This document shows positions 6,124 through 44,443 of a stretch of 64,000 nt of DNA, piece after piece. A program made the position numbers and the translations under genes. Below the pieces are notes generated by a model, which was given only the letters and a program-made list of their open reading frames with translations, was not told where the DNA came from and ran no database searches. Position 1 is the stretch's first letter. Every line of letters starts with the position of its first letter. Origin of the DNA: an uncultured Bacteroidota bacterium (GTDB taxonomy: Bacteria; Bacteroidota; Bacteroidia; Bacteroidales; DTGW01); contig OY969556.1 in assembly GCA_963701015.1 (NCBI GenBank), forward strand, positions 3,628,424 through 3,692,423. Reading direction: 5' to 3'.

Positions 6124-6168
6124 CATTATCACATTGAATAATTAGCATATTGAATCATTATCTAATTA
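6124..6168 (-). repeat. Word-repeat spacer S1: three tandem ~16-nt units that begin on the stop codon of the ABC ATPase gene
   Basis: Plus strand reads CATTATCACATTGAAT|AATTAGCATATTGAAT|CATTATCTAATTA. The final TTA is the reverse-complement stop of 6166..6867. Confidence 0.7.
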
Positions 6169-6867
6169 TTTAGTTTCATCCGTTGAGACCTTCCCATCTA
6201 CAAGCGTTATAACACGCCTGGCTTTTTTCACAACCCTGGGATCATGGGTTGAAAATATAAAAGTAATATTTTCATCAATGTTGAGCTTTTCCATTATATC
6301 TAACAGTTTTTCTGCCGATTTTGAATCAAGGTTTGCCGTAGGTTCGTCAGCAAGAATAAACTTTGGTCGCGATGCCAACGCGCGTGCAACCGCGACCCTT
6401 TGTTGTTGACCGCCAGAAAGCTTTGCCGGACGACTGTTCATTCTATCTCCCAATCCAACTGCTTTAAGTAATTCAGCACTGCGTTCTTCCTTTTCTTTTT
6501 TCGGCCAGTTTTGCAAAAACATAATAAACTCAACATTTTCGCGTGCTGTTAAAACCGGAATAAGGTTATACGACTGAAATACAAATCCAATATTATGCAT
6601 TCTGAAATCAATTAATTTAGAACTTTTCAAAGCACCAATATTTACACTGTCAATTTTAATTTCACCAGAAGTTGGGAAATCAATCCCACCAACCATATTC
6701 AAAAATGTGGTTTTGCCTGAACCAGAAGGACCCACGACTGCTGTAAATTCGCCTTGCTCAAACGAAATATTCAGATTTTCCAAAGCAATTACTTCGTTGC
6801 CATTTTCATGGTAAACCTTTGTTAATGAATTGGTTTCAATTATTTTATTTTCTTTAGCTGTTTCCAT
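6166..6867 (-). CDS. ABC transporter ATP-binding protein (MacB/LolD-like)
   Basis: Walker A GPSGSGKTT, ABC signature LSGGQQQRV, Walker B FILADEPT. Confidence 0.95.
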   Translation of the reverse strand: METAKENKIIETNSLTKVYHENGNEVIALENLNISFEQGEFTAVVGPSGSGKTTFLNMVGGIDFPTSGEIKIDSVNIGALKSSKLIDFRMHNIGFVFQSYNLIPVLTARENVEFIMFLQNWPKKEKEERSAELLKAVGLGDRMNSRPAKLSGGQQQRVAVARALASRPKFILADEPTANLDSKSAEKLLDIMEKLNIDENITFIFSTHDPRVVKKARRVITLVDGKVSTDETK

Positions 6868-6889
6868 TATTATTATTTTTTAATTGACT

Positions 6890-6934
6890 CATTAGCACAT
6901 TAACAAATTAGCACATTGTTTCATTAGCTCATTA
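6890..6934 (-). repeat. Word-repeat spacer S2, paralogous to S1, beginning on the stop codon of the FtsX permease gene
   Basis: Plus strand reads CATTAGCACATTAACA|AATTAGCACATTGTTT|CATTAGCTCATTA. The final TTA is the reverse-complement stop of 6932..8233. Confidence 0.7.
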
Positions 6935-8287: not shown

Positions 8288-9502
8288 TTATCTTCTCATT
8301 GCCTTTGTTATATCTAATTTATACAATGAATATAATGGAAACAGGAACACAATAATAATTATAGCAAATACAATATATACCTGTTGTATAATATAATCAA
8401 ACTGCCATGCTGTAGGTAAAATAGGTTCTAAGCCAAATGTTGAATAAGTATTCGCCATACTGGCAGACATACTTATAGGATGAAAATGAAAATAAGCAAC
8501 AATCGGAAGGCTAAACAGAAAACCAAAAAATAAACCCAGCAGACATATAAATATAAGTTCCATTGAAACCATTGAAACAAGTCTATGACGTTTCATCCCA
8601 ACAGTCATCATTATTCCAAACTCGTGTTGCCGTTCTGCTATCATCATTAAAACCGTTCCAAACACACCAAAGCCAACAATGAGGTATAACAATAAAATTA
8701 ATATCATGCTGCTACCCTGCTTGCTTATATATATCTGATAAAGTTCTACCAGCATTTCTTTCCACGACATTACTTCGAAATGATTAGGACCAATAACCTT
8801 ATTAATTTTCGAAACTATTTTATCCATATCTTGTGGATTGTTTAAATCAACTACCATTGAAGTAATCCTTCCCGGAGCTGAATAATAATCCTGGGCGACA
8901 GGAAGTGGCATAAAAACCATCTGGTTATCATACTCCGGTGCCGGAAGTTTCACAATGCCTATAATTCTATATATGCCATTGGCTCCCATGCCTTGATAAC
9001 CTTGACTTAGCAATACAATAGAATCATTTGTTTTCAGGTTAAGATATTTTGAAAGTCTTTCAGATAAAATTACGCCAGTGTCTATAAGGCTGAAATACCT
9101 GCCTGCCACAATTCTTTTGTCTAAGCCTGTAAATTCTTTTTCCAATAATGGATTAACCCCAACAGTAATAACACCTTTCGTTTTTTCACCGGTTGATGCT
9201 AGTGAAAACGATTCGAGGCGAGGAATTAACCCTTTAACCTGAGGAATTGATTTTATCTTTAGAAACGTGGGGTTGTCAGCAGCCATGCTGTAATCGAAGG
9301 TTTTATTGTCCCAGTATCCTTTATCATGAACCTGAACATAACCTGTATAGGAATGAAGAACACCATCAATAAGATTCAGCCACACACCCAGATTAAAGCC
9401 GCGCATTAAAATAGAAAAGAAAACAGCAAAAAATACCGAAGCCATTGTTATTAATGTTCGGCGCTTGTTCCGCCATAAGTTTCGCCAGGCTAATTTTATC
9501 AT
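8288..9502 (-). CDS. ABC transporter permease, MacB-like periplasmic domain plus FtsX domain
   Basis: Probable ATG at 9502 (MIKLAWRNLWRNKRRT...); the ORF track extends to a GTG at 9523. Same architecture as the neighbouring permease. Confidence 0.85.
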   Translation of the reverse strand: MIKLAWRNLWRNKRRTLITMASVFFAVFFSILMRGFNLGVWLNLIDGVLHSYTGYVQVHDKGYWDNKTFDYSMAADNPTFLKIKSIPQVKGLIPRLESFSLASTGEKTKGVITVGVNPLLEKEFTGLDKRIVAGRYFSLIDTGVILSERLSKYLNLKTNDSIVLLSQGYQGMGANGIYRIIGIVKLPAPEYDNQMVFMPLPVAQDYYSAPGRITSMVVDLNNPQDMDKIVSKINKVIGPNHFEVMSWKEMLVELYQIYISKQGSSMILILLLYLIVGFGVFGTVLMMIAERQHEFGIMMTVGMKRHRLVSMVSMELIFICLLGLFFGFLFSLPIVAYFHFHPISMSASMANTYSTFGLEPILPTAWQFDYIIQQVYIVFAIIIIVFLFPLYSLYKLDITKAMRR

Positions 9503-9541
9503 AGTAATTAGTGATTTGTGCACAGTGCTAAGTAAACCGTG

Positions 9542-9910
9542 CTATTTTTTAGACTTATAGTAATTTATTGTCCCGTTTATTAGTTTTTTACATTCAGTTA
9601 TAATCTCCAGCAATTCGTTCAATTCAGATTCATTAATGTATGTTTGATCAAAAGAAAGGTAAAGCTGTGTTTCCAATTCATATAATGAACCACGTGAGTA
9701 ATTGAGAAATTGAATTGTTTCATTTTTCTGCAACCGTCCAATTCCCTCTGCAATATTTGATGGGACAGAAACACATGATCTTCTCATTTGATTGGTCAAA
9801 CTATATATTTCTTCCTTTGGAAATTTTTTGGTAACGTTATACAACTTATTTACCAACAACCTGGATTTTTTCCAGACATCCATTTCAATATATGATTTAC
9901 TATTATCCAT
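9542..9910 (-). CDS. Four-helix-bundle protein (23S rRNA intervening-sequence protein family)
   Basis: 122 aa with family hallmarks LTNQMRRSCVSVPSNIAEG and SLYELETQL. Same strand as the host operon and wedged between its genes. Confidence 0.85.
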   Translation of the reverse strand: MDNSKSYIEMDVWKKSRLLVNKLYNVTKKFPKEEIYSLTNQMRRSCVSVPSNIAEGIGRLQKNETIQFLNYSRGSLYELETQLYLSFDQTYINESELNELLEIITECKKLINGTINYYKSKK

Positions 9911-9981
9911 TGCTATAATTATATTTTAAGATTTCTAAACTAAGTGCTCAGCACTAAGCACTATATTCTAGGCACTATACA

Positions 9982-11848: not shown

Positions 11849-11903
11849 ATTTGCTAATTTAAAAATTAACGCCCTATTACTTATTCCTTTTAAATTAGCA
11901 AAT
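11849..11903 (-). repeat. Hairpin spacer between tetR and the sigma gene, built from facing word units
   Basis: ATTTGCTAATTT (11849-11860) is the exact reverse complement of AAATTAGCAAAT (11892-11903), with a 31-nt loop. Outer GCTGA/TCAGC extension with a bulge. Confidence 0.6.
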
Positions 11904-11926
11904 TGGCATATTAAATAATCAGCAAA

Positions 11927-25795: not shown

Positions 25796-26353
25796 TTATA
25801 ACCATGAAATTATAAATTCTGTAATATTTTGATTTTTAGCTAATGATTTAGTTATTTCAACTTTTACACTTTTGCAACCCGATTTTTCGAGAGCCCTTTC
25901 CATCCAGCCTGCAATATTATGCTCAACAATTTCTTCAGGTTCAGGAAATTTTGTGATATGTAAAACCAAACCATTTTTTGAAGCATTTAAAACAACAATT
26001 TCTGAGGGTTGAAAATAAGTAGTAAAAACCCTTCCGGCACGTTCCATAATATATTTTGGAGAACCTAACTGGATAAAAAATTTATAAACGCCGGTCAAAG
26101 CCAAATCAGCACTAAAACGACCCATTGTACGCGCTGTTTGAATATCATCACCATTATAAAACACTTTACTTATGGTTTTCATTGGGATAACCAAACTATC
26201 CTGAATTGGATACCAATTATTTGTAAATATTAAGCCGCCCATTATTTTTTTTGAACTTTCCGGTAAAGCATCCAACCATTCTTTGTATTTTAGAGGGAAT
26301 TGTTTTTGAACAAATTCAGGAATTGATTTTACTGCAGTACCTTTAATTTCCAT
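25796..26353 (-). CDS. Uncharacterised 185-aa protein, tandem paralog A (resembles the DUF2378 / H-NOX-associated-like fold family)
   Basis: Clean ORF. The C-terminal pattern RAGRVFTTYFQPSE...HITKFPEP...IAGWMERALEKSGCKSVKVEITKS...EFIISW recalls DUF2378 as I remember it; not verified by search. Confidence 0.4.
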   Translation of the reverse strand: MEIKGTAVKSIPEFVQKQFPLKYKEWLDALPESSKKIMGGLIFTNNWYPIQDSLVIPMKTISKVFYNGDDIQTARTMGRFSADLALTGVYKFFIQLGSPKYIMERAGRVFTTYFQPSEIVVLNASKNGLVLHITKFPEPEEIVEHNIAGWMERALEKSGCKSVKVEITKSLAKNQNITEFIISWL

Positions 26354-26430
26354 AATTACAAATGCTTTAAATTTGAAATTCTTTGAAAATTAAAATTACA
26401 ACATAAAAGTATAAATGCGCATAAACTTTA

Positions 26431-26994
26431 TTACACATTTATCCATGAAATTATAAATTCAGTAATATTATCACTTTTTGCAAGTGATTTTGTAATTTCA
26501 ATTTTTATATTCTTACAACCTGATTTTTCAAGAGCAAGTTCCATCCAACCGGCAATATCATATTCAATAATTTTATCGGGTTCAGGAAATTTAGTAATAT
26601 GAAATATCAGGCCGTTTTTTGAAACATTTAAAACTGCTACCTCTGAAGGTTGAAAATAAGTTGTAAAAACCCTTCCAGCCCTTTCAATAATATATCGGGG
26701 GGAACCAAATTGGATGAAAAATTTATATATTCCTGATAAAGCCGATTCGGCATGAAACCTACCCATCAATTTTGCTGTCTTTTCATCATCGCCAGAATAA
26801 TAAACTTTGCTAATTGTTTTCATAGGAATTACCAACCCATCATTTAATTGATACCAATTGTTGGAAAAAATTACTCCCTTGAAAAGTTTTCGAGAAATTT
26901 CAGGAAGTTCCTCCAACCATTCATTTTGCCGGATTGGGAAATTTTTTTGTACAAATTCAGGTATAGATTTTAATGCAATCCCTTTAATTTCCAT
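26431..26994 (-). CDS. Uncharacterised 187-aa protein, tandem paralog B of 25796..26353
   Basis: Collinear with paralog A and shares long identical runs (MEIKG, KSIPEFVQK, LVIPMKTISKV, ERAGRVFTTYFQPSE, HITKFPEP, NITEFIISW). Confidence 0.4.
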   Translation of the reverse strand: MEIKGIALKSIPEFVQKNFPIRQNEWLEELPEISRKLFKGVIFSNNWYQLNDGLVIPMKTISKVYYSGDDEKTAKLMGRFHAESALSGIYKFFIQFGSPRYIIERAGRVFTTYFQPSEVAVLNVSKNGLIFHITKFPEPDKIIEYDIAGWMELALEKSGCKNIKIEITKSLAKSDNITEFIISWINV

Positions 26995-27209: not shown

Positions 27210-28247
27210 ATGAAAAAATTACTTTTTACCCTCGTTACTTGCATTGGTTTGTTTACAACAATAAATGCAAAAGTTTACACTGTTAGCAATAACTCTAATG
27301 CGCCTGCACAATATAGCGATATTACTCCCGCTATAACTGCAGCATCTTCTGGTGATACAATTTATATCCAAGGCTCTCCAAATACTTACAGTACTACAAC
27401 TTATATTGTAAATAAAAAACTCACTTTAATAGGAGCTGGATATGATGTTAACAATACTGATTTTAAATATACTACGAATATTAATTATCTCAATTTTGAT
27501 TCTGCAGCAATCGTTTCTGCTGGCGGAGTTAGTGGCGCAAAATTAATAGGTTTAAATTTATATAGTATTAGTTTTGGCACAAACCATGTTAATAATGTTA
27601 CCATTGACAGATGTTATGTACAATCTATTACAGTGGGTGGCAATAACTGGATTATTAAAGACAGTTATATTACTTCTACGATAAGTGGATATTATGTTGC
27701 CACTAACTTAACCGTAACCAATAATATTTTTGTAGGTGGGTATTTAGTTAATATGAACTTAAATTCAATTTATGTAACGAATAATCTTTTTCTTAATAAT
27801 TCAAATTATGATTTAACTTCTTCAAGCCTTGCAAATGTTAACAATAACATATTTTATAATAATACTGCAGGTAAATGTGCAACTTGTTTGTATAATAACA
27901 ATATAGCTTACTATACCTCTGCAGTTTCATTTCCTGGTAGTGGTACTGGAAACTATGTTCAAAGTGACCCTTTGTTTGTGGTTTCTTCGCCAGCACTTCC
28001 TATCCCTGGAACAAGTATTGCATATGCATCTATTAAAAGTTATAATTGGACCTTGCAACCTTCTTCAGTAGGTCATTTACACAGCGGTGATGGAACTGAC
28101 TGTGGTATTTATGGAGGGCTATATCCATGGTCAAATTTTACAGGTCAGTCAAATATTCCTTTAGTACAATCTTTTATAATTCAAAATCCTGTTGTTCAAT
28201 CGAATGGCACATTAAATATTACTGTTAAGGCAAAGAAAATGCAATAA
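27210..28247 (+). CDS. Secreted parallel beta-helix repeat protein
   Basis: 345 aa with a signal peptide. Asn-rich repeats of about 22 residues (VTNNIFVGG, VTNNLFLNN, VNNNIFYNN, YNNNIAYY) are typical of right-handed beta-helices. Confidence 0.5.
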   Translation: MKKLLFTLVTCIGLFTTINAKVYTVSNNSNAPAQYSDITPAITAASSGDTIYIQGSPNTYSTTTYIVNKKLTLIGAGYDVNNTDFKYTTNINYLNFDSAAIVSAGGVSGAKLIGLNLYSISFGTNHVNNVTIDRCYVQSITVGGNNWIIKDSYITSTISGYYVATNLTVTNNIFVGGYLVNMNLNSIYVTNNLFLNNSNYDLTSSSLANVNNNIFYNNTAGKCATCLYNNNIAYYTSAVSFPGSGTGNYVQSDPLFVVSSPALPIPGTSIAYASIKSYNWTLQPSSVGHLHSGDGTDCGIYGGLYPWSNFTGQSNIPLVQSFIIQNPVVQSNGTLNITVKAKKMQ

Positions 28248-31711: not shown

Positions 31712-31874
31712 CTTGAAAAAATAATATTGATAAATAAGTTTTAACCTTGAATCACTGGATTTGAAAACATATATAATTATACTTTTCAATTTATATTCTT
31801 CATTTTCCGTATCCCATTCATCGTTTTCCGTTTTCCAGTGTTCGTTCTAAGTTTTTTATTTTAGTTTATTCCAT

Positions 31875-31906: not shown

Positions 31907-33778
31907 ATGGCTGCAATGGAAAATAATAAATTATTCAATGAATTTCCGCCTGTTTCTTCTGAAAAATGGGAAGAAATTATCCAAGAAGATCTTAAAGGCG
32001 CTGACTACAACAAGAAACTTGTATGGAAAACAAATGAAGGAATACAGGTTAAACCTTACTACCGCTCAGGCGATATTGAAAAGTTAAGCCATTTAAAATC
32101 GGTTCCTAATGAATTCCCCTATGTCCGTGGAAATTTTGAAACCGGGAACAATTGGGAAATCCGTCAGGATGTTATTGTTTATAATATTGAACAGGCTAAT
32201 GCCGATGCAATAGAAGCCTTAAATAAAGGTGCATCGTCGATATGTTTCATGTCAGTGGAAAAAATAAATACCCAGGACGATTTTTCGAAATTGCTTAAAA
32301 ATATTCATTTTGGGTGCATCAACTTTAATATCAATTCATGCAGAAATGCCCCGAAATTCTTTAATTTTTTAGTTGAAGAAACAAAAATAAAGGCTTATGA
32401 TATTGCTTTAATGAAAGGTTCTATTGGATTTAATCCGTTGGGGATACTCACAAATTCAGGAAATTGGATCAATTCAGAAGAAGAAGATTTTAAAACTGCT
32501 ATAAATTATATAGAATTTGCTGCTAAAGCTTTGCCATATTACAGGGTTTTAAATGTAAATGGAAATAATTTTCAGGAATCAGGATCGTCAATTGTCCAGG
32601 AAGTTGCATTTTCATTGGCAATGGCAAATGAATACTTGTCAAAACTTACTGAATCAGGGCTTACCGTTGATACAATTGCCGCACGGATACAATTCAATTT
32701 GGCGACTAGTAGCAATTACTTTTTCGAAATAGCTAAAATTCGTGCTTTCCGATTATTATGGGCAAAAATTGTTGAAGCTTACCATCCAAAATCTGAGCAA
32801 TCGGCCAGGACATTTATTCATAGCACCACAGCAAAATGGAATATGGCTGTATATGATGCCTATGTTAATATACTCCGCTCAACAACCGAAACAATGAGCG
32901 CAGCTATTGGCGGAGCCGATTCAATATCAGTTAAAGCATTTGATGCTGTGTATAACAAACAAAATAGTTTTTCAAACCGCATAGCGCGAAATACTCAAAT
33001 TATTTTAAAGGAAGAAGCGTACTTTGAACATATTGTTGATCCGGCAGCCGGTTCATATTATATTGAAAATCTAACAGACAGTATTGCTGCAGAAGCATGG
33101 AAGTTGTTTCAAATTGTCGAATCCAATGGTGGTTATAGCAAAAGTTTTTTAAAGGGATTAATTCAATCCGAGATTGAAAAAGTAGCACAGAAGCAATTAA
33201 ACGATTTTACAAGCCGAAAGACTACAATATTAGGCGTTAACCAATATCCTAATTTTAATGAACAAGTTTTAAAAAATATTGACAGCGAAGTGTTTGAATA
33301 TTCTCAAAATATTGCTTCAACTACTATCGCAAAACCTTTAAAGAGGTTCCGTTTGGCTGAAATATTTGAAGAAGTCCGTTTAAAAACCGAAAAAAACGGC
33401 CAAAGGCCAAAAGTGTTTATGCTTACTATTGGCAACCTGGCAATGCGTTTGGCAAGATCACAATTTTCGAGCAACTTTTTTGCTGTTGCCGGATTTGAGG
33501 TTATTGACAACAATGGTTTTAAAACCGTTGATGATGGAGTTAAAGCAGCATTTACGGCAAATGCCGATATAATTGTTTTGTGTTCAAGTGATGATGAATA
33601 TCTTGCATTTGCACCTGAAGCTTTTGAAAAAATAGGCAACAAGGCCATTTTTGTAGTTGCTGGCACTCCTGCATGTTCGGAAGACCTTAAATCGAAAGGA
33701 ATTAAAAATTTCATCAATGTGAAATCGAATATTCTTGAAACACTGAAGGAATACCAGAAATTGCTTCAAATTGTATAG
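31907..33778 (+). CDS. mutA: Methylmalonyl-CoA mutase small (beta) subunit
   Basis: About 623 aa from MAAMENNKLF. Mutase-like core ([48 protein letters not shown]) but lacks the DxHxxG B12 motif, as expected for the small subunit. Confidence 0.85.
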   Translation: MAAMENNKLFNEFPPVSSEKWEEIIQEDLKGADYNKKLVWKTNEGIQVKPYYRSGDIEKLSHLKSVPNEFPYVRGNFETGNNWEIRQDVIVYNIEQANADAIEALNKGASSICFMSVEKINTQDDFSKLLKNIHFGCINFNINSCRNAPKFFNFLVEETKIKAYDIALMKGSIGFNPLGILTNSGNWINSEEEDFKTAINYIEFAAKALPYYRVLNVNGNNFQESGSSIVQEVAFSLAMANEYLSKLTESGLTVDTIAARIQFNLATSSNYFFEIAKIRAFRLLWAKIVEAYHPKSEQSARTFIHSTTAKWNMAVYDAYVNILRSTTETMSAAIGGADSISVKAFDAVYNKQNSFSNRIARNTQIILKEEAYFEHIVDPAAGSYYIENLTDSIAAEAWKLFQIVESNGGYSKSFLKGLIQSEIEKVAQKQLNDFTSRKTTILGVNQYPNFNEQVLKNIDSEVFEYSQNIASTTIAKPLKRFRLAEIFEEVRLKTEKNGQRPKVFMLTIGNLAMRLARSQFSSNFFAVAGFEVIDNNGFKTVDDGVKAAFTANADIIVLCSSDDEYLAFAPEAFEKIGNKAIFVVAGTPACSEDLKSKGIKNFINVKSNILETLKEYQKLLQIV

Positions 33779-34199
33779 AATAAAGAACAAGGAACAAAGA
33801 TGCACAATTTTCGAAATTTACATATTTGGGATAAAGCCAGGTTAATTGTAAAAGAAAGCTATCAATTAACAGATAAATTTCCTCAAACTGAAATTTGGGG
33901 ACTTACAAATCAAATTCGAAGAGCATCTATATCAGTGTCCTCCAATATTGCAGAAGGTTCTGGTAAAAGTTCTAACAAAGATTTTACCCGTTTTCTCGAA
34001 ATAGCTATTTCTTCTTGTTTTGAATTAGAAACTCAATTTATTCTTGCATTTGATTTAGGATATATTTTGGAAACCGAAATGTCAGGCATTTGTAATTCAT
34101 TACAAGAAGAACTAAAAATGATATATAATTTTATTCAAACATTACAAATAAAAAATTAAGTGAACATTCTTTACTCTTTGTTCCTTGTTCTTTATTCTA
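33776..34199 (+). repeat. IVS-like cassette: a perfect 25-bp inverted repeat bracketing the four-helix-bundle gene
   Basis: TAGAATAAAGAACAAGGAACAAAGA (33776-33800) is the exact reverse complement of TCTTTGTTCCTTGTTCTTTATTCTA (34175-34199). Confidence 0.9.
33800..34159 (+). CDS. Four-helix-bundle protein (23S rRNA intervening-sequence protein family)
   Basis: 119 aa with LTNQIRRASISVSSNIAEG and CFELETQF hallmarks. Paralog of 9542..9910. Confidence 0.85.
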   Translation: MHNFRNLHIWDKARLIVKESYQLTDKFPQTEIWGLTNQIRRASISVSSNIAEGSGKSSNKDFTRFLEIAISSCFELETQFILAFDLGYILETEMSGICNSLQEELKMIYNFIQTLQIKN

Positions 34200-34211
34200 A
34201 CTTATTATGGT

Positions 34212-36350
34212 ATGAAACCCGATTTTTCAAAAATTGATTTTAAAAATACTAAAGTTTCGGAAAAGAAAATTGATTCCGCAACAACTTGGCAAACAGCTGA
34301 ACAAATTGCTGTTAAACCTGTATATACAGCTACCGATTTGGAAAACATGGAGCATTTAAATTATGCTGCAGGCATAGCGCCATTTTTACGTGGCCCATAT
34401 AGCACAATGTACGTCATGCGCCCATGGACAATTCGCCAATATGCAGGGTTTTCAACTGCCGAAGAAAGCAATGCCTTTTATCGCCGTAACCTGGCATCGG
34501 GACAAAAAGGTCTTTCTGTTGCATTCGACCTGGCAACACATCGTGGATACGATAGTGACCATCCGCGCGTAGTTGGAGATGTTGGAAAAGCTGGTGTTGC
34601 CATTGACAGTGTTGAAGACATGAAAATTCTTTTCGACCAAATCCCTCTCAATAAAATGTCGGTTTCAATGACAATGAATGGCGCTGTATTGCCTGTACTG
34701 GCATTTTATATTGTAGCTGCTATGGAGCAAGGTGCTAAATTAGAAGAATTAACAGGCACAATCCAAAACGATATTTTGAAAGAGTTCATGGTTCGCAACA
34801 CATACATCTATCCTCCTGAAATGAGTATGCGCATCATTGCAGATATTTTTGAATATACATCTAAGTTCATGCCTAAATTCAACAGTATAAGTATTTCAGG
34901 GTATCATATGCAGGAAGCCGGTGCAACTGCCGATATTGAACTTGCCTATACTTTAGCTGACGGTTTAGAATATCTTAGAACAGGAACAAAAGCAGGTATT
35001 AAAATTGATGACTTCGCTCCTCGCCTATCGTTCTTTTGGGCAATTGGCATGAACCACTTTATGGAAATTGCCAAAATGAGGGCTGCACGATTACTTTGGG
35101 CTAAAATCGTTAATAAATTCGAACCTAAAAACCAAAAATCACTTGCCCTGCGGACACATTCGCAAACATCGGGATGGAGTTTAACGGAACAAGATCCATT
35201 TAATAACATTGCTCGTACCTGTATTGAAGCTATGGCTGCTGCCTTAGGCCATACGCAAAGTTTGCATACCAATGCTTTAGATGAAGCTATTGCCTTGCCT
35301 ACTGATTTTTCTGCTCGTATTGCCCGTAACACACAAATATATTTGCAGGAAGAAACCAATATTTGTAAAGTAGTTGATCCATGGGCAGGTTCATATTATG
35401 TAGAAAGCCTTACACACGAATTGGTTCATAAAGCATGGAAGCTAATAGAGGAAGTTGAAGAACTAGGTGGAATGTCAAAAGCAATTGAGACCGGTTTGCC
35501 AAAAATGAGGATTGAGGAAGCAGCTGCTCGAAAACAAGGCCGCATTGATAGTGGTAGAGATACAATTGTGGGTGTCAATAAATTCCGATTGGAAAAAGAA
35601 GACCCTATTGAAACGCTCGAAGTTGATAATACTGCCGTACGTGATTCGCAAATTAAACGTTTGCAAAGAATAAAAACTGAACGAAACAACGCTGAAGTTG
35701 AAACTGCTTTAAATGCCATTACAAATGCAGCAAAATCGGGCAATGAAAATTTGCTGTCACTTTCTGTTGTAGCAGCCCAAAAACGTGCTACCTTAGGCGA
35801 AATTTCAGATGCAATTGAAAAAATTTCAGGAAGATATAAAGCCGTGATTAGAACAATTTCTGGAGTATATAGTAGCGAAAGCAAAGACGATGAAGATTTC
35901 AAAAAAGCAAAAGAATTATGCGAACAATTTGCAAAGACTGAAGGTCGTCAACCACGTATTATGATTGCCAAAATGGGACAAGATGGTCACGACCGTGGCG
36001 CAAAAGTGGTAGCAACCGGTTATGCCGATTTGGGCTTTGATGTTGACATGGGTCCGCTCTTTCAAACTCCTGCAGAGGCAGCAAAGCAAGCAGTTGAAAA
36101 CGATGTACATGTTTTAGGCGTTTCATCATTGGCTGCCGGACATAAAACATTAGTTCCACAGGTAATTGAAGAACTTCGTAATCTTGGGCGTCAGGATATT
36201 ATGGTAATTGCAGGTGGTGTTATTCCAGCTCAGGACTATGATTATTTATACAAAGCCGGAGTTGTTGCAATTTTTGGCCCGGGAACTTCCGTATCTAAAG
36301 CCGGGAGAAAAATATTGGAAATATTAATTGAAACCTCAAAAGAAGATTAA
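34212..36350 (+). CDS. mutB: Methylmalonyl-CoA mutase large (alpha) subunit
   Basis: About 712 aa from [53 protein letters not shown] and the C-terminal B12-binding motif [12 protein letters not shown] (DxHxxG). Confidence 0.95.
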
Positions 36351-41000: not shown

Positions 41001-41243
41001 ATGGAAGAAATAAACGAACATCATGATAAAATCCAAAAACATCACGATGAACTTCAAAAACACCACGATTTAATTGAAAGACACCATAAATTACTTGAGC
41101 AGCACCACAAACAGTATGGTTATAAAAATAGTACAATTAAAGAAAGCCATGATAATTTAAAAGATAATCATGAAGATTTAAAAGAAGATCATAAGAATCT
41201 GAAAGATCATCATGAAGAAATTAAAAAGAAAAATGAAAATTAA
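41001..41243 (+). CDS. Small histidine-heptad coiled-coil protein (80 aa)
   Basis: HHDKIQK HHDELQK HHDLIER HHKLLEQ HHKQ ... SHDNLKD NHEDLKE DHKNLKD HHEEIKK: two blocks of four 7-residue repeats, each starting with His pairs. Has its own promoter-like box. Confidence 0.55.
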   Translation: MEEINEHHDKIQKHHDELQKHHDLIERHHKLLEQHHKQYGYKNSTIKESHDNLKDNHEDLKEDHKNLKDHHEEIKKKNEN

Positions 41244-41257
41244 TAAGACAATATGCC

Positions 41258-41312
41258 AATGTGCTAATTTGTCAATGATTCAATATGTCTTTAGCTAATG
41301 TGCCAATTAGTC
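41258..41312 (+). repeat. Word-repeat spacer following the His-rich ORF stop
   Basis: AATGTGCTAATTTGTC|AATGATTCAATATGTC|TTTAGCTAATGTGCC|AATTAGTC. Same core (AATGTGCTAAT) as spacers S1/S2 read in gene sense. Confidence 0.6.
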
Positions 41313-42473: not shown

Positions 42474-43721
42474 ATGGAATTAAAAAGGGTTGTAGTTACT
42501 GGGCTAGGTGCAATAACACCAATTGGTAAAACGGTTGAAGAATATTGGCAAAGTCTTTCAAATGGTCAGGGCGGGGCAGGTTTAATAACCCGTTTTGATG
42601 CCACTAAATTTAAAACCAGGTTTGCCTGCGAAGTAAAGAATTACGATCCGGGAACATATTTTGACAGGAAGGAAGCAAAAAAGCTTGATCCGTATGCACA
42701 ATTTGCTTTGATAGCAGCAGACGAGGCCATGAAAGACAGTGGCCTCGACTTATCTAAAATTAATTGCGACAAAGCAGGTGTTATTATTGCATCAGGAATT
42801 GGGGGTATTGACACTTTTATGCAGGAAGTTAAAGCTTATGTATTGGGTGATGGTACTCCAAAAATTAGCCCTTTCTTCGTTCCAAAAATGATTTGTGATA
42901 TTGCTGCAGGTCATATTTCCATGAAATATGGGTTCAGAGGCCCAAATTATGCAACAGTTTCAGCCTGTGCTTCCTCAACCCATGCATTAGTTGATGCTTT
43001 AACTTACATTCGATTAGGAAAAGCAAATTTATTTGTAGTTGGTGGCTCCGAAGCTGCCATAAATGAAGCTGCTATGGGAGGTTTTAATTCCATGCAAGCT
43101 TTATCTACAAATAATGAAAATTATGCAACTGCCTCACGTCCTTTTGACTTGACCCGTGATGGTTTTGTAATGGGTGAAGGTTCGGGAATTCTTATTTTTG
43201 AAGAACTTGAACATGCATTACAACGTGGTGCTAAAATTTATGCTGAAGTTGCCGGTGGCGGAATGTCAGCAGATGCTTATCATCTTACAGCGCCGCATCC
43301 TGAAGGGCTTGGTGCAATTTTAGTTATGAAAAACACTTTAGAAGATGCCAATCTGAAAGCTGAAGAGGTTGATTATGTAAATGTTCATGGAACTGCAACA
43401 CCACTCGGTGATATTGCCGAAACTAAGGCAATTAAGGTCGTTTTTGGTGAGCATGCTTACAACCTAAATATTAGTTCGACTAAGTCTATGACTGGTCATT
43501 TGCTTGGTGCTACAGGCGCTATTGAATCTATAGCATCAGTGTTGGCTATTAAAAATGGAATTATTCCTCCAACAATTAACCATACTACAATTGATCCTGC
43601 AATTGACCCACGGTTAAATTTAACTTTAAACAAAGCCCAAAAACGGGACATTAAAGTAGCCTTAAGCAATACATTTGGTTTTGGTGGTCACAATTCATCA
43701 ATTATTTTCAAAAAATATTGA
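42474..43721 (+). CDS. fabF: Beta-ketoacyl-ACP synthase II
   Basis: 415 aa with active-site region ATVSACASSTHAL, His motifs NVHGTATPLGD and KSMTGHLLGATG, and C-terminal NTFGFGGHN. Confidence 0.95.
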   Translation: MELKRVVVTGLGAITPIGKTVEEYWQSLSNGQGGAGLITRFDATKFKTRFACEVKNYDPGTYFDRKEAKKLDPYAQFALIAADEAMKDSGLDLSKINCDKAGVIIASGIGGIDTFMQEVKAYVLGDGTPKISPFFVPKMICDIAAGHISMKYGFRGPNYATVSACASSTHALVDALTYIRLGKANLFVVGGSEAAINEAAMGGFNSMQALSTNNENYATASRPFDLTRDGFVMGEGSGILIFEELEHALQRGAKIYAEVAGGGMSADAYHLTAPHPEGLGAILVMKNTLEDANLKAEEVDYVNVHGTATPLGDIAETKAIKVVFGEHAYNLNISSTKSMTGHLLGATGAIESIASVLAIKNGIIPPTINHTTIDPAIDPRLNLTLNKAQKRDIKVALSNTFGFGGHNSSIIFKKY

Positions 43722-44443
43722 TAGGTTTTGGATTCATAAGGTTTCTGTTTACATCAAATAAAAAGTACAACAAAAAACTTATTGAACTTTTAGGATTTTT
43801 TCCTAGGAACAGGAAAATATATGATTTGGCATTTGTACACCGATCTGCTTCTGTAATTTTACCCGATGGTTCCATTGTAAATAATGAAAGGCTTGAATTC
43901 TTAGGTGATGCAGTACTTGACGCAGTAATTGCCGATTATCTTTTCTCAAAATACCCCAACAACGACGAAGGGTTTCTGTCTAAAATGCGTTCGAAAATTG
44001 TTAAACGCAAACATCTTAATACTTTAGCCGATAAAATTGGTATTGAACAATTTATTGTTTCAAATTCCATTAACCAAAATGGTGGAAAATATATTTACGG
44101 GAATGCACTTGAAGCATTAATAGGCGCCATATATATTGATAAAGGTTATGATATTTCCCGTAAATTCATAATTAATAAAATGCTCGAATCAAATATAAAT
44201 TTAAGTGAATTAGAACATAAAGAGACTGATTTCAAAAGCCGGATGATTGAATGGTCGCAAAAAAGCCGTACCGAAATTAGTTTTGAGAATCAGGAAGAAT
44301 ACCCAATAAACGAACATACACCAATTTTTATTTCACGAATTATTGTAGCCGATAAAATTTTAGGGCAAGGGAAAGGATTTTCAAAAAAAGAAGCTGAACA
44401 AAATGCTGCTGAACAAGCATTTAAATCTATTCTGCCTTCTTGA
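43718..44443 (+). CDS. rnc: Ribonuclease III
   Basis: 241 aa, TTG start overlapping the fabF stop. Catalytic signature ERLEFLGDAVLD and a C-terminal dsRBD (GKGFSKKEAEQNAAEQA). Confidence 0.9.
   Translation: MIGFGFIRFLFTSNKKYNKKLIELLGFFPRNRKIYDLAFVHRSASVILPDGSIVNNERLEFLGDAVLDAVIADYLFSKYPNNDEGFLSKMRSKIVKRKHLNTLADKIGIEQFIVSNSINQNGGKYIYGNALEALIGAIYIDKGYDISRKFIINKMLESNINLSELEHKETDFKSRMIEWSQKSRTEISFENQEEYPINEHTPIFISRIIVADKILGQGKGFSKKEAEQNAAEQAFKSILPS

Follow-up and report, generated by a model that had tools for sequence, protein, structure and literature searches.

Inverted heptamer arrays around a four-helix-bundle gene in a mutA-mutB operon: a candidate intervening-sequence-type cassette residing in an mRNA

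Why would a small gene of the 23S rRNA intervening-sequence (IVS) protein family sit between the genes for the small and the large subunit of methylmalonyl-CoA mutase, and why should it be framed by a perfect inverted repeat? This question is raised by a stretch of 64,000 nucleotides (nt) from an uncultured Bacteroidota bacterium (contig OY969556.1, positions 3,628,424 to 3,692,423; referred to here, at its full length, as the window), in which mutA and mutB are separated by an open reading frame (ORF) of 119 amino acids (aa) and its complementary flanks. A sequence-only reading of the window had drawn attention to this arrangement. Our analysis indicates that the gene and its flanks are a module added to the operon, that this locus is one clean, perfectly paired example of a wider pattern, and that it is rather probably a relative of the rRNA-borne IVS elements that has taken up residence in an mRNA. 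The features on which this argument rests are the following.

31916-33778, plus strand: mutA, small (beta) subunit of methylmalonyl-CoA mutase (PF01642, E 1e-136; TIGR00642)
33776-33800, plus strand: left arm, purine- and A-rich, about 3.5 heptamers (TAGAATA AAGAACA AGGAACA AAGA)
33800-34159, plus strand: cassette gene, 119 aa, four-helix bundle of the 23S_rRNA_IVP / S23p / Avd-like family (PF05635, TIGR02436)
34160-34174, plus strand: linker of 15 nt from the cassette stop codon to the right arm, identical in the metagenomic locus L002
34175-34199, plus strand: right arm, TCTTTGTTCCTTGTTCTTTATTCTA, pyrimidine-rich, exact complement of the left arm
34200-34211, plus strand: leader of 12 nt from the right arm to the mutB start
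34212-36350, plus strand: mutB, large (alpha) subunit of methylmalonyl-CoA mutase with B12-binding domain (PRK09426, 1325 bits; PF01642; PF02310)
43718-44443, plus strand: rnc, RNase III (PF14622, PF00636, dsrm)

The left arm (33776-33800) reads TAGAATAAAGAACAAGGAACAAAGA and is matched exactly by the reverse complement of positions 34175-34199; 374 nt lie between the two. All coordinates that the sequence-only reading had given for this 25-bp repeat hold, as does its placement of the arms relative to the neighboring genes: the left arm opens with TAG (33776-33778), the stop codon of the mutA ORF, and its last base is the A of the cassette ATG (33800), and the ATG of mutB at 34212 follows 12 nt past the right arm. 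This mutB start is backed by its homologues, all of which begin with MKPDF. The identities of both mutase genes are backed by matches to MM_CoA_mutase, mmCoA_mut_beta, PRK09426 and the B12-binding domain; the mutA gene call comprises 620 aa on an identical Logan contig, and a mechanical ORF list places the start of the mutA ORF at TTG 31880. Directly upstream of the mutA start, a tandem repeat of 21 nt, TCTTCGTTTTCCGTATCCCAG, is present in 2.4 copies (31777-31846).

The arms are indeed perfect complements of each other, but they are not a unique 25-mer. They consist of about 3.5 tandem heptamers (AGAATAA AGAACAA GGAACAA AGA), a detail missing from the sequence-only reading, and Tandem Repeats Finder reports a repeat of period 7 with 4.7 copies in the right-arm region (34166-34198). 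When up to three mismatches were allowed, the 25-mer matched just the two arm sites in the 64-kb window, and it found no match in 100 dinucleotide-preserving shuffles. Apart from this arm pair, the 64 kb contain no inverted repeat that is long, perfect and long-range, and we detected in them neither further AAAGAAC arrays nor ORF-less copies of the cassette's units.

Folding of the segment 33760-34215 as RNA paired the arms in both the minimum free energy (MFE) and the centroid structure, as the sequence-only reading had expected. The MFE amounts to -105 kcal/mol (z = -5.0; 0/100 shuffles fold as well), and the predicted stem consists of 25/25 perfectly paired bp that close a loop of 374 nt holding just the ORF. 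Because of the arm geometry and this fold, the stem should occlude the start codon of the cassette gene, as had been proposed. A search of Rfam at the gathering threshold revealed no known RNA family at the locus, and no rRNA and only one tRNA in the whole window. The Bacteroidetes -7 promoter motif TAnnTTTG does not occur in 33300-34260, which is weak negative evidence. The gene at 43718-44443, previously read as rnc, was confirmed as such by matches to an RNase III domain and to dsrm.

The ORF at 33800-34159 is the only one between the arms, and its assignment to the 23S rRNA IVS protein family was borne out by matches to PF05635 (23S_rRNA_IVP; E 6.7e-35) and to TIGR02436 ("four helix bundle protein"; E 1.6e-34). 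It is also related to the Xanthomonas protein XCC0516, whose structure (PDB 2GSC; E 1.7e-18) is a pentamer of four-helix bundles; by homology, the cassette protein would likewise be a ring-shaped pentamer. The gene matches PF05635 and TIGR02436 alone and contains no NTPase domain, so that it does not encode a G3E P-loop GTPase of the MeaB/ArgK type, and no nuclease or recombinase motif was found in what is a small helical bundle. With a dN/dS of about 0.1 across the window clade, the ORF is clearly under purifying selection. The family to which it belongs is large: a single-sequence search retrieves 19,434 clusters at 50% identity.

Is the cassette then a regular constituent of this operon? 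We scanned with the N-terminus of MutB, taking one genome per species, and measured the best 80 loci, mostly from Bacteroidota. Of the 66 measurable mutA-mutB junctions, about 42 do not exceed 60 nt; in many of them the genes overlap or lie 0-20 nt apart. Since the junctions of most relatives are tight and empty, the cassette is an added, discrete module, and the sequence-only reading was in this respect well founded. A PF05635 gene fills the gap at 5 of the 80 loci, namely in Mangrovibacterium marinum DSM 28823 (L019), which is cultivable, a member of the Prolixibacteraceae (L029), two Paludibacteraceae (L025 and L061) and one further member of the Bacteroidales (L043). A sixth carrier (L101) was found in metagenomes, so that this family occupies the junction in six or seven lineages, L101 and the window clade being counted. 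Other genes found there encode DUF4197 (L047), UbiA-family (L033, L051) and DUF4440 (L030) proteins, and in one Bacteroidales genome (L056) a PDDEXK_3 protein of the GxxExxY type (2218-2673), apparently another small gene family that inserts into operon spacers; at this locus, long tandem repeats, partly N-masked, extend downstream to about 2990. ORF-less hairpins made of short tandem units are likewise present at the junction, as in L016 (GAATGNN x5 opposite CATTCAG x3) and in L028, L046, L084 and L013, with scores above those of their own shuffles.

Each relative that carries the PF05635 gene at this junction has complementary flanks; we found no case in which the ORF stands there without repeats. 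The arm sequences, however, differ between lineages. The arms of L002 are identical to those of the window, and L003, L005, L025 and L101, though pairing imperfectly, are built from the same type of unit, AAAGAAC/AAAGAAT; RNAalifold gives the terminal stem as the consensus structure of five cassettes. Units of different sequence that still pair were found in L019 (GATTTTC-N), L029 (CAAGTATC), L043 (TTAGAT..) and L061 (AAAGTC-R; AAAGTCG).

Orthologues of the window cassette on metagenomic contigs share 97% (L002), 73% (L003/L004) and 71% (L005-L008) protein identity with it. All of them lie between mutA and mutB, and the genes outside of mutAB differ. As the orthologues with 71-73% identity are found at this very site and have arms of the same type, the cassette is not a recent arrival there. 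With its 119 aa, the protein does not suffice for a resolved tree that would address the monophyly of the mutA-mutB cassettes, and we therefore calibrated its rate against those of MutA and MutB. In the window clade, the four-helix-bundle (4HB) protein and the MutA C-terminus diverge at roughly equal rates (71-75% versus 64-71% identity). Between L019 and L029, in contrast, MutB is 89% and the MutA C-terminus 75% identical, the 4HB protein just 48%, and between L025 and L061, whose arms differ, the values are 91% for MutB and 46% for the 4HB protein. Because the divergence of these 4HB proteins greatly exceeds what mutA and mutB would lead one to expect, the simplest reading is that several independent insertions or replacements occurred at one junction, along with long vertical residence in the lineage of the window.

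The association of PF05635 genes with inverted arrays extends well beyond this operon. In a metagenome scan with the family alignment, we collected 80 loci, 74 of them with full flanks, and took as the measure of flank complementarity the best score between the 100 nt upstream and the 100 nt downstream of the gene. Its median was 12, versus 7 when the flanks of different loci were paired, and a score of at least 12 was reached by 43 of the 74 loci, but by only 6 of the 300 controls with mismatched loci. At other copies, the arms thus complement each other far more than in the control, and the outcome that the sequence-only reading had named as refuting it, a lack of such complementarity, did not occur. 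The arms are tandem heptamers whose unit differs by locus: TAGGGAC/T x8 in L163, TACGAGC/TACAAGT in L092, GTCAGTT in L104, GTGAAGC in L146, AGCNNTC in L116 and TTTAGGG in L138. Short-period self-similarity at a threshold of 0.75 was observed in 26% of the upstream and 31% of the downstream flanks versus 0.5% of control segments from the same loci, the best lags being 7, then 14 and 8. Within the arrays, variation is concentrated at two of the seven positions (0.18-0.23 versus 0.04-0.10), and the rest forms a constant core.

These cassettes obey rules of orientation. Of 66 cassettes, 61 are co-directional with their upstream neighbor, and 48 of 74 are so with both neighbors; the spacers measure about 50 nt. 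The upstream arm is the purine-rich one (0.61 versus 0.39; 41/55 loci; p = 3e-7), and upstream arms contain 196 AG versus 46 CT dinucleotides. Arm similarity follows protein similarity (Mantel p = 5e-4): arm 6-mers are shared by all seven pairs with at least 70% protein identity, and by about 13% of the pairs below 55%. The loci L137, L139, L159 and L151, whose proteins are 70-80% identical, have the same AAGGATTC-type arms in the midst of flanking genes that are unrelated on both sides, and their similarity fades out at the outer ends of the arms or slightly past them; a target-site duplication was not seen in this group. Since arm type tracks the protein and related cassettes sit in unrelated contexts, arms and ORF behave, as judged from these comparisons, as one transferable module. 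Two further features were noted in this group: immediately upstream of the left arm, L137, L139 and L159 have in common a further short hairpin, GGATCATC...GTTGATCC, and the cassette stop codon TGA falls within the first right-arm unit (CCTTGAA).

Among the metagenomic loci, an extra array of the cassette's own unit occurs elsewhere in the locus of about 5 kb in 4 of 45 cases, in comparison with 2 of 360 for foreign probes. In L164, GTACAGR arrays are found in several spacers of one operon. Own-unit arrays recur at L164 (556-4380), L130 (1534-2924) and L160 (1006-1215) in other spacers and at gene ends of the same co-directional operon and in both orientations, so that long-range pairings beyond the one that flanks the ORF are possible.

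The window itself contains another member of the family:

9499-9977, minus strand: second, older PF05635 cassette (tblastn E 8e-26)

Its ORF (9542-9910; 122 aa), which is 39% identical to the first in a MAFFT alignment and 44% in tblastn, lies between genes for a LolA-like protein and an FtsX/MacB permease (Pfam) in an operon for an extracytoplasmic function (ECF) sigma factor and an ATP-binding cassette (ABC) transporter. The arms, at about 9935-9977 and 9499-9536, are degenerate arrays of TAGTGCT-type heptamers; the upstream one reads TAGTGCC TAGAATA TAGTGCT TAGTGCT GAGCACT, and its complement lies downstream. Their duplex has a predicted energy of -31.8 kcal/mol versus -19.4 +/- 3.6 kcal/mol for shuffles, and is thereby about 3.4 standard deviations better. 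In the same operon, both spacers beside the ABC ATPase gene (6166-6867) carry tandem 8/16-nt units, TAATGNGC (minus strand), at 6883-6934 and 6125-6160, in direct and not in inverted orientation; their core resembles the arm unit of the second cassette, and they may be solo arrays of the kind present in L164. A hairpin at 11849-11905 was considered as a heptamer array and rejected, as it is an ordinary 15-bp hairpin upstream of an ECF sigma gene.

The module recurs in several bacterial phyla. A tblastn search of plasmids returned PF05635 in 33 records, mostly from Nostocales, plus Riemerella. The plasmid cassettes lie in co-directional operons, for example among genes of a type IV secretion system (T4SS), with heptamer arrays on both flanks: GGGAACA opposite TGTTCCC x6 in N. 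edaphicum, TCAGGAG/TCAGAAT x8 opposite CTCCTGA in N. punctiforme, and AAGGTTC opposite GAACCTT in Riemerella. In Xanthomonas, the gene for XCC0516, the very protein of structure 2GSC, resides between accB and accC (L175-L179; about 2425-2872). The accB stop codon is directly followed by GGGAATC GGGAGTG GAGAATC GGGAATC GG, and CCCATTC CCCATTC CCGACTC CCTATTC CC stands directly before accC, with the right array ending exactly at the ATG. The arms of this cassette are the dispersed GGGAATC repeat of the genome, of which 186 arrays, including 70 convergent pairs, were described in Xcc and read as G-quadruplexes (PMC4692102). Gene-plus-arms modules thus occur in many operons, among them accBC and those for T4SS and ABC transporters.

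Heptamer repeats had been reported in several of these groups as abundant and unexplained (PMC2670836, PMC4692102, PMC4679880). They include the GGGGAYT repeats of Nostoc, read as G-quadruplexes (PMC4692102), the TAACTGA repeats of the Beggiatoaceae (PMC4679880), and the cyanobacterial STRR (short tandemly repeated repetitive) sequences, which form hairpins, usually of 7-bp repeats, between hupS and hupL and for which a stabilizing or coupling role has been proposed (PMC2670836). Neither PMC4692102 nor PMC4679880 mentions an S23, four-helix or intervening-sequence protein. Genes for 23S_rRNA_IVP proteins, in turn, were recorded within cas loci of all types (PMC3936711, PMC10910872), the flanks not being examined in PMC3936711; their presence there fits a promiscuous insertion into operons. 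In the searchable open-access literature, we found no paper that ties PF05635 genes to flanking heptamer arrays outside of rRNA. Nor did we come across a description, in that literature, of the general combination of a PF05635 gene with inverted heptamer arrays in operons, with units that co-vary with the protein and match dispersed repeat families.

How might such a cassette work? On balance, we favor the view that it is an IVS-type cassette in an mRNA rather than an rRNA, an inserted module that is co-transcribed with its host operon and whose stem hides a start codon and is cut by RNase III. Its parts differ in strength: we are far more confident about the insertion and the modular nature of the cassette than about this explanation as a whole, and for the cleavage step, which is drawn by analogy, the chances appear about even. 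The PF05635 gene and two inverted arrays of units of about 7 nt would have been inserted as one module into the mutA-mutB spacer. Lacking a detectable promoter motif, the cassette would be read through from the mutase promoter, and in the resulting polycistronic RNA the duplex would conceal the A-rich initiation region and the ATG of the cassette gene. The RNase III of the host could cut this duplex, as has been demonstrated for IVS elements in 23S rRNA, and would in this way separate the mutA, cassette and mutB RNAs. Ribosomes that end translation at the mutA stop codon, with which the left arm begins, might transiently open the stem, and translation of the cassette would then be coupled to that of mutA. 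The ring protein probably recognizes its own heptamer arrays. Such an element could persist as a tolerated selfish passenger or through a processing site that the host has co-opted.

Several observations weigh against this explanation. No mechanism of mobility is evident: the L137 group lacks a target-site duplication, a recombinase is missing, and the window contains the arms just once. The cassette has long been stable at its site, and in this lineage its behavior is that of a resident member of the operon. When the window is compared with L002, the cassette segment (33776-34211) has 7 differences in 436 nt, all of them in the ORF, versus 173 in 2700 nt of the flanks (p = 1e-5); at synonymous sites, the divergence amounts to 0.056 for the ORF, 0.23 for mutA and 0.27 for mutB, and tracts free of differences reach about 50-65 nt into each mutase gene (33725-34276). 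Either recent recombinational exchange or constraint at the nucleotide level would fit this low divergence equally well. About 40% of the sampled family members show weak flank complementarity. Finally, arm mismatches across the family comprise 35 of the sense-strand G.U types versus 55 of the A.C types; with no excess of G.U, selection for an RNA duplex is not demonstrated by this wobble test, and complementarity may be kept by quasipalindrome correction or conversion at the DNA level and not by selection for RNA pairing.

The same observations bear on other explanations. The PF05635 pentamer might be a regulator that binds heptamer repeats sequence-specifically, in the manner of TRAP or HutP, and acts in trans on arrays of the same unit in operon spacers, the cassette being an autoregulated gene with its own sites. 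This is not exclusive of an IVS-type cassette, and taken by itself we judge it unlikely. It would account for the constant core with variation at two of the seven unit positions, for the strand asymmetry relative to the gene, for the nearby own-unit arrays such as the GTACAGR arrays of L164, and for the identity of the XCC0516 arms with the genome-wide GGGAATC repeat (PMC4692102). It would also explain why the arm unit type co-varies with the protein, but common descent of the module predicts this too. An AG (NAG-N4) core is present in 17 of 21 consensus units, which at 81% versus a compositional expectation of 64% is only modestly elevated and, with n = 21, suggestive only. Moreover, the 64-kb window holds no other AAAGAAC or TAGTGCT arrays, and simple operator binding has no need of an inverted layout around the ORF. 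Improbable in our view is a DNA transposon-like element, in which the arms would be terminal inverted repeats (TIRs) recognized as a cruciform or hairpin, a host or unlinked recombinase would move the cassette, and the RNA stem would be a by-product. Related cassettes in unrelated surroundings, their similarity ending with the arms or slightly past them, distinct cassettes at one junction, arm mismatches that lack a G.U bias, and the lower divergence of the cassette in comparison with its flanks between the window and L002 all agree with this. Yet the arm sequences differ completely between cassettes, so that there is no common recombinase site, and the missing target-site duplication, the protein devoid of nuclease or recombinase motifs, and the absence of near-identical copies within the window speak against it, as do the orientation rules and the purine-rich upstream arm, which a purely DNA-level element would not need.

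The sequence-only reading had held that the cassette is "not an ordinary operon member", a statement that stands as far as its discrete, modular nature is concerned and that is weakened by its long residence at the site and the purifying selection on its ORF. These last two features would suit a vertically inherited operon member without mobility or selfishness, whose hairpin is a generic mRNA stabilizer or a device for translational coupling. The ORF-less short-unit hairpins at the same junction (L016, L028, L046, L084, L013) would suit it as well, and this very role was suggested for STRR hairpins (PMC2670836). It is nevertheless quite improbable, given that 0-40 nt suffice for the junction in most Bacteroidota, that many other operons, such as accBC and those for T4SS and ABC transporters, contain the same module and that PF05635 genes are reported in cas loci (PMC3936711; flanks not examined there), and that close relatives possess different cassettes at the same junction. 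The chance that the protein is an accessory variability determinant (Avd) of a diversity-generating retroelement (DGR) is close to nil. Its family is indeed common to bAvd, and PF22296 bAvd is co-annotated on many homologues (PMC10053308). However, the neighbors within about 12 kb are housekeeping genes and one 345-aa ORF (27210-28247) with no Pfam match; there is no reverse transcriptase (RT) among them and no direct repeat resembling a template repeat/variable repeat (TR/VR) pair, which refutes a DGR/Avd at this locus, unless the protein serves in trans an RT and a TR/VR pair located elsewhere. The sole long direct repeat, 25799-26994, consists of two tandem copies of about 640 nt that are 71-79% identical and represent paralogous small genes; as a TR/VR pair it was discarded, its mismatches affecting all bases and not specifically adenines.

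Beyond the locus at hand, we tentatively raise a broader idea, which we regard as possible rather than probable: PF05635 proteins might be the missing trans-acting partners of heptamer repeats, among them the cyanobacterial STRR sequences, the Xanthomonas GGGAATC repeat and the arms of rRNA IVS elements. Each protein lineage would recognize its own 7-nt unit. Gene-bearing cassettes would be autonomous and ORF-less heptamer hairpins, whether they lie in rRNA, in RNase P RNA or in the spacers of operons, non-autonomous, and together they would constitute a cross-phylum selfish system acting at the RNA level or a network of post-transcriptional processing. To our knowledge, the S23p/IVS family has outside of DGRs been without an assigned function since 1993. 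The finding that its genes normally come as a module with inverted heptamer arrays, and that this module sits in operons across phyla, often between the subunit genes of one enzyme (mutA/mutB, accB/accC), turns two old puzzles, namely what the IVS protein family does and how heptamer repeats arose in bacteria, into one question that is testable in tractable organisms. For annotation, it explains the "four helix bundle protein" genes in unrelated operons, including cas loci, and co-occurrence of PF05635 with operon genes should not be taken as a functional link. Apart from these elements, the window contains a long tract of 21-nt tandem repeats (41017-41289), a heptapeptide repeat if coding, between ribD and a gene for a beta-ketoacyl synthase.

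Against which known systems should the mutA-mutB cassette be set? With the STRR, GGGAATC, GGGGAYT and TAACTGA repeats it has in common the tandem 7-nt units, mostly in spacers between co-directional genes, the frequent arrangement in convergent pairs capable of forming hairpins, and the location between subunit genes of one enzyme. Those families were published as repeats alone, interpreted as G-quadruplexes, stabilizers or slippage products, whereas the arrays of the cassette bracket a 119-aa ORF and are built from a lineage-specific unit, AAAGAAC.

Correia or NEMIS elements of Neisseria are miniature inverted-repeat transposable elements whose TIR hairpins, embedded in mRNAs, are cut by RNase III. 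They resemble the cassette as TIR-bounded insertions in an operon spacer that yield a long mRNA stem, and in the modulation of flanking messages by RNase III processing, which for the cassette is conjectural. Unlike it, Correia elements are non-coding and present in hundreds of near-identical copies with a defined TIR and a TA target duplication; the cassette codes for a protein, its repeat arms are lineage-specific, and neither a target-site duplication nor a near-identical copy in the window was seen. bAvd is a homologous four-helix bundle, a pentameric ring that binds nucleic acid, but the cassette has no RT, TR or VR nearby and is placed between heptamer arrays in the operon of an enzyme. 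TRAP and HutP are ring proteins that bind regularly spaced NAG triplets, the HutP site being UAG-N4 repeated with a period of 7. A ring oligomer that reads a short constant core at a fixed period would be a likeness in possible working; the folds are unrelated, and the constant-core signal of the cassette is modest.

It is the IVS elements of 23S rRNA to which the cassette is tied most closely in its build. Ralph and McClelland reportedly described an ORF-bearing 23S rRNA IVS from Leptospira in 1993. The IVS of Coxiella burnetii has 428 nt, a 28-bp terminal stem that is cut by RNase III in vitro, an S23p ORF, and tandem heptamers, GACAGAT x3, upstream of the S23p ATG (PMC4990558). Common to such elements and to the cassette are the PF05635 family, a size of about 420-440 nt, an ORF in the loop of a terminal-repeat stem of about 25-28 bp, tandem heptamers just before the ATG, dependence on read-through transcription by the host, and ORF-less short versions at the same kinds of site. 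They differ in their host, a mutA-mutB mRNA spacer and not helix 25 or 45 of 23S rRNA, and consequently in what cleavage, demonstrated in rRNA and presumed for the cassette, would fragment, namely an mRNA instead of an rRNA. In addition, the cassette ORF is clearly under purifying selection, whereas that of Coxiella is reported to be decaying. On account of the protein family and the shared anatomy, including the tandem heptamers before the ATG, the link to the 23S IVS elements is drawn; residing outside of rRNA, the cassette should not be filed as one of them. It is a variant of the ORF-bearing IVS that has every structural hallmark of these elements but the rRNA location, and that lives in an mRNA.

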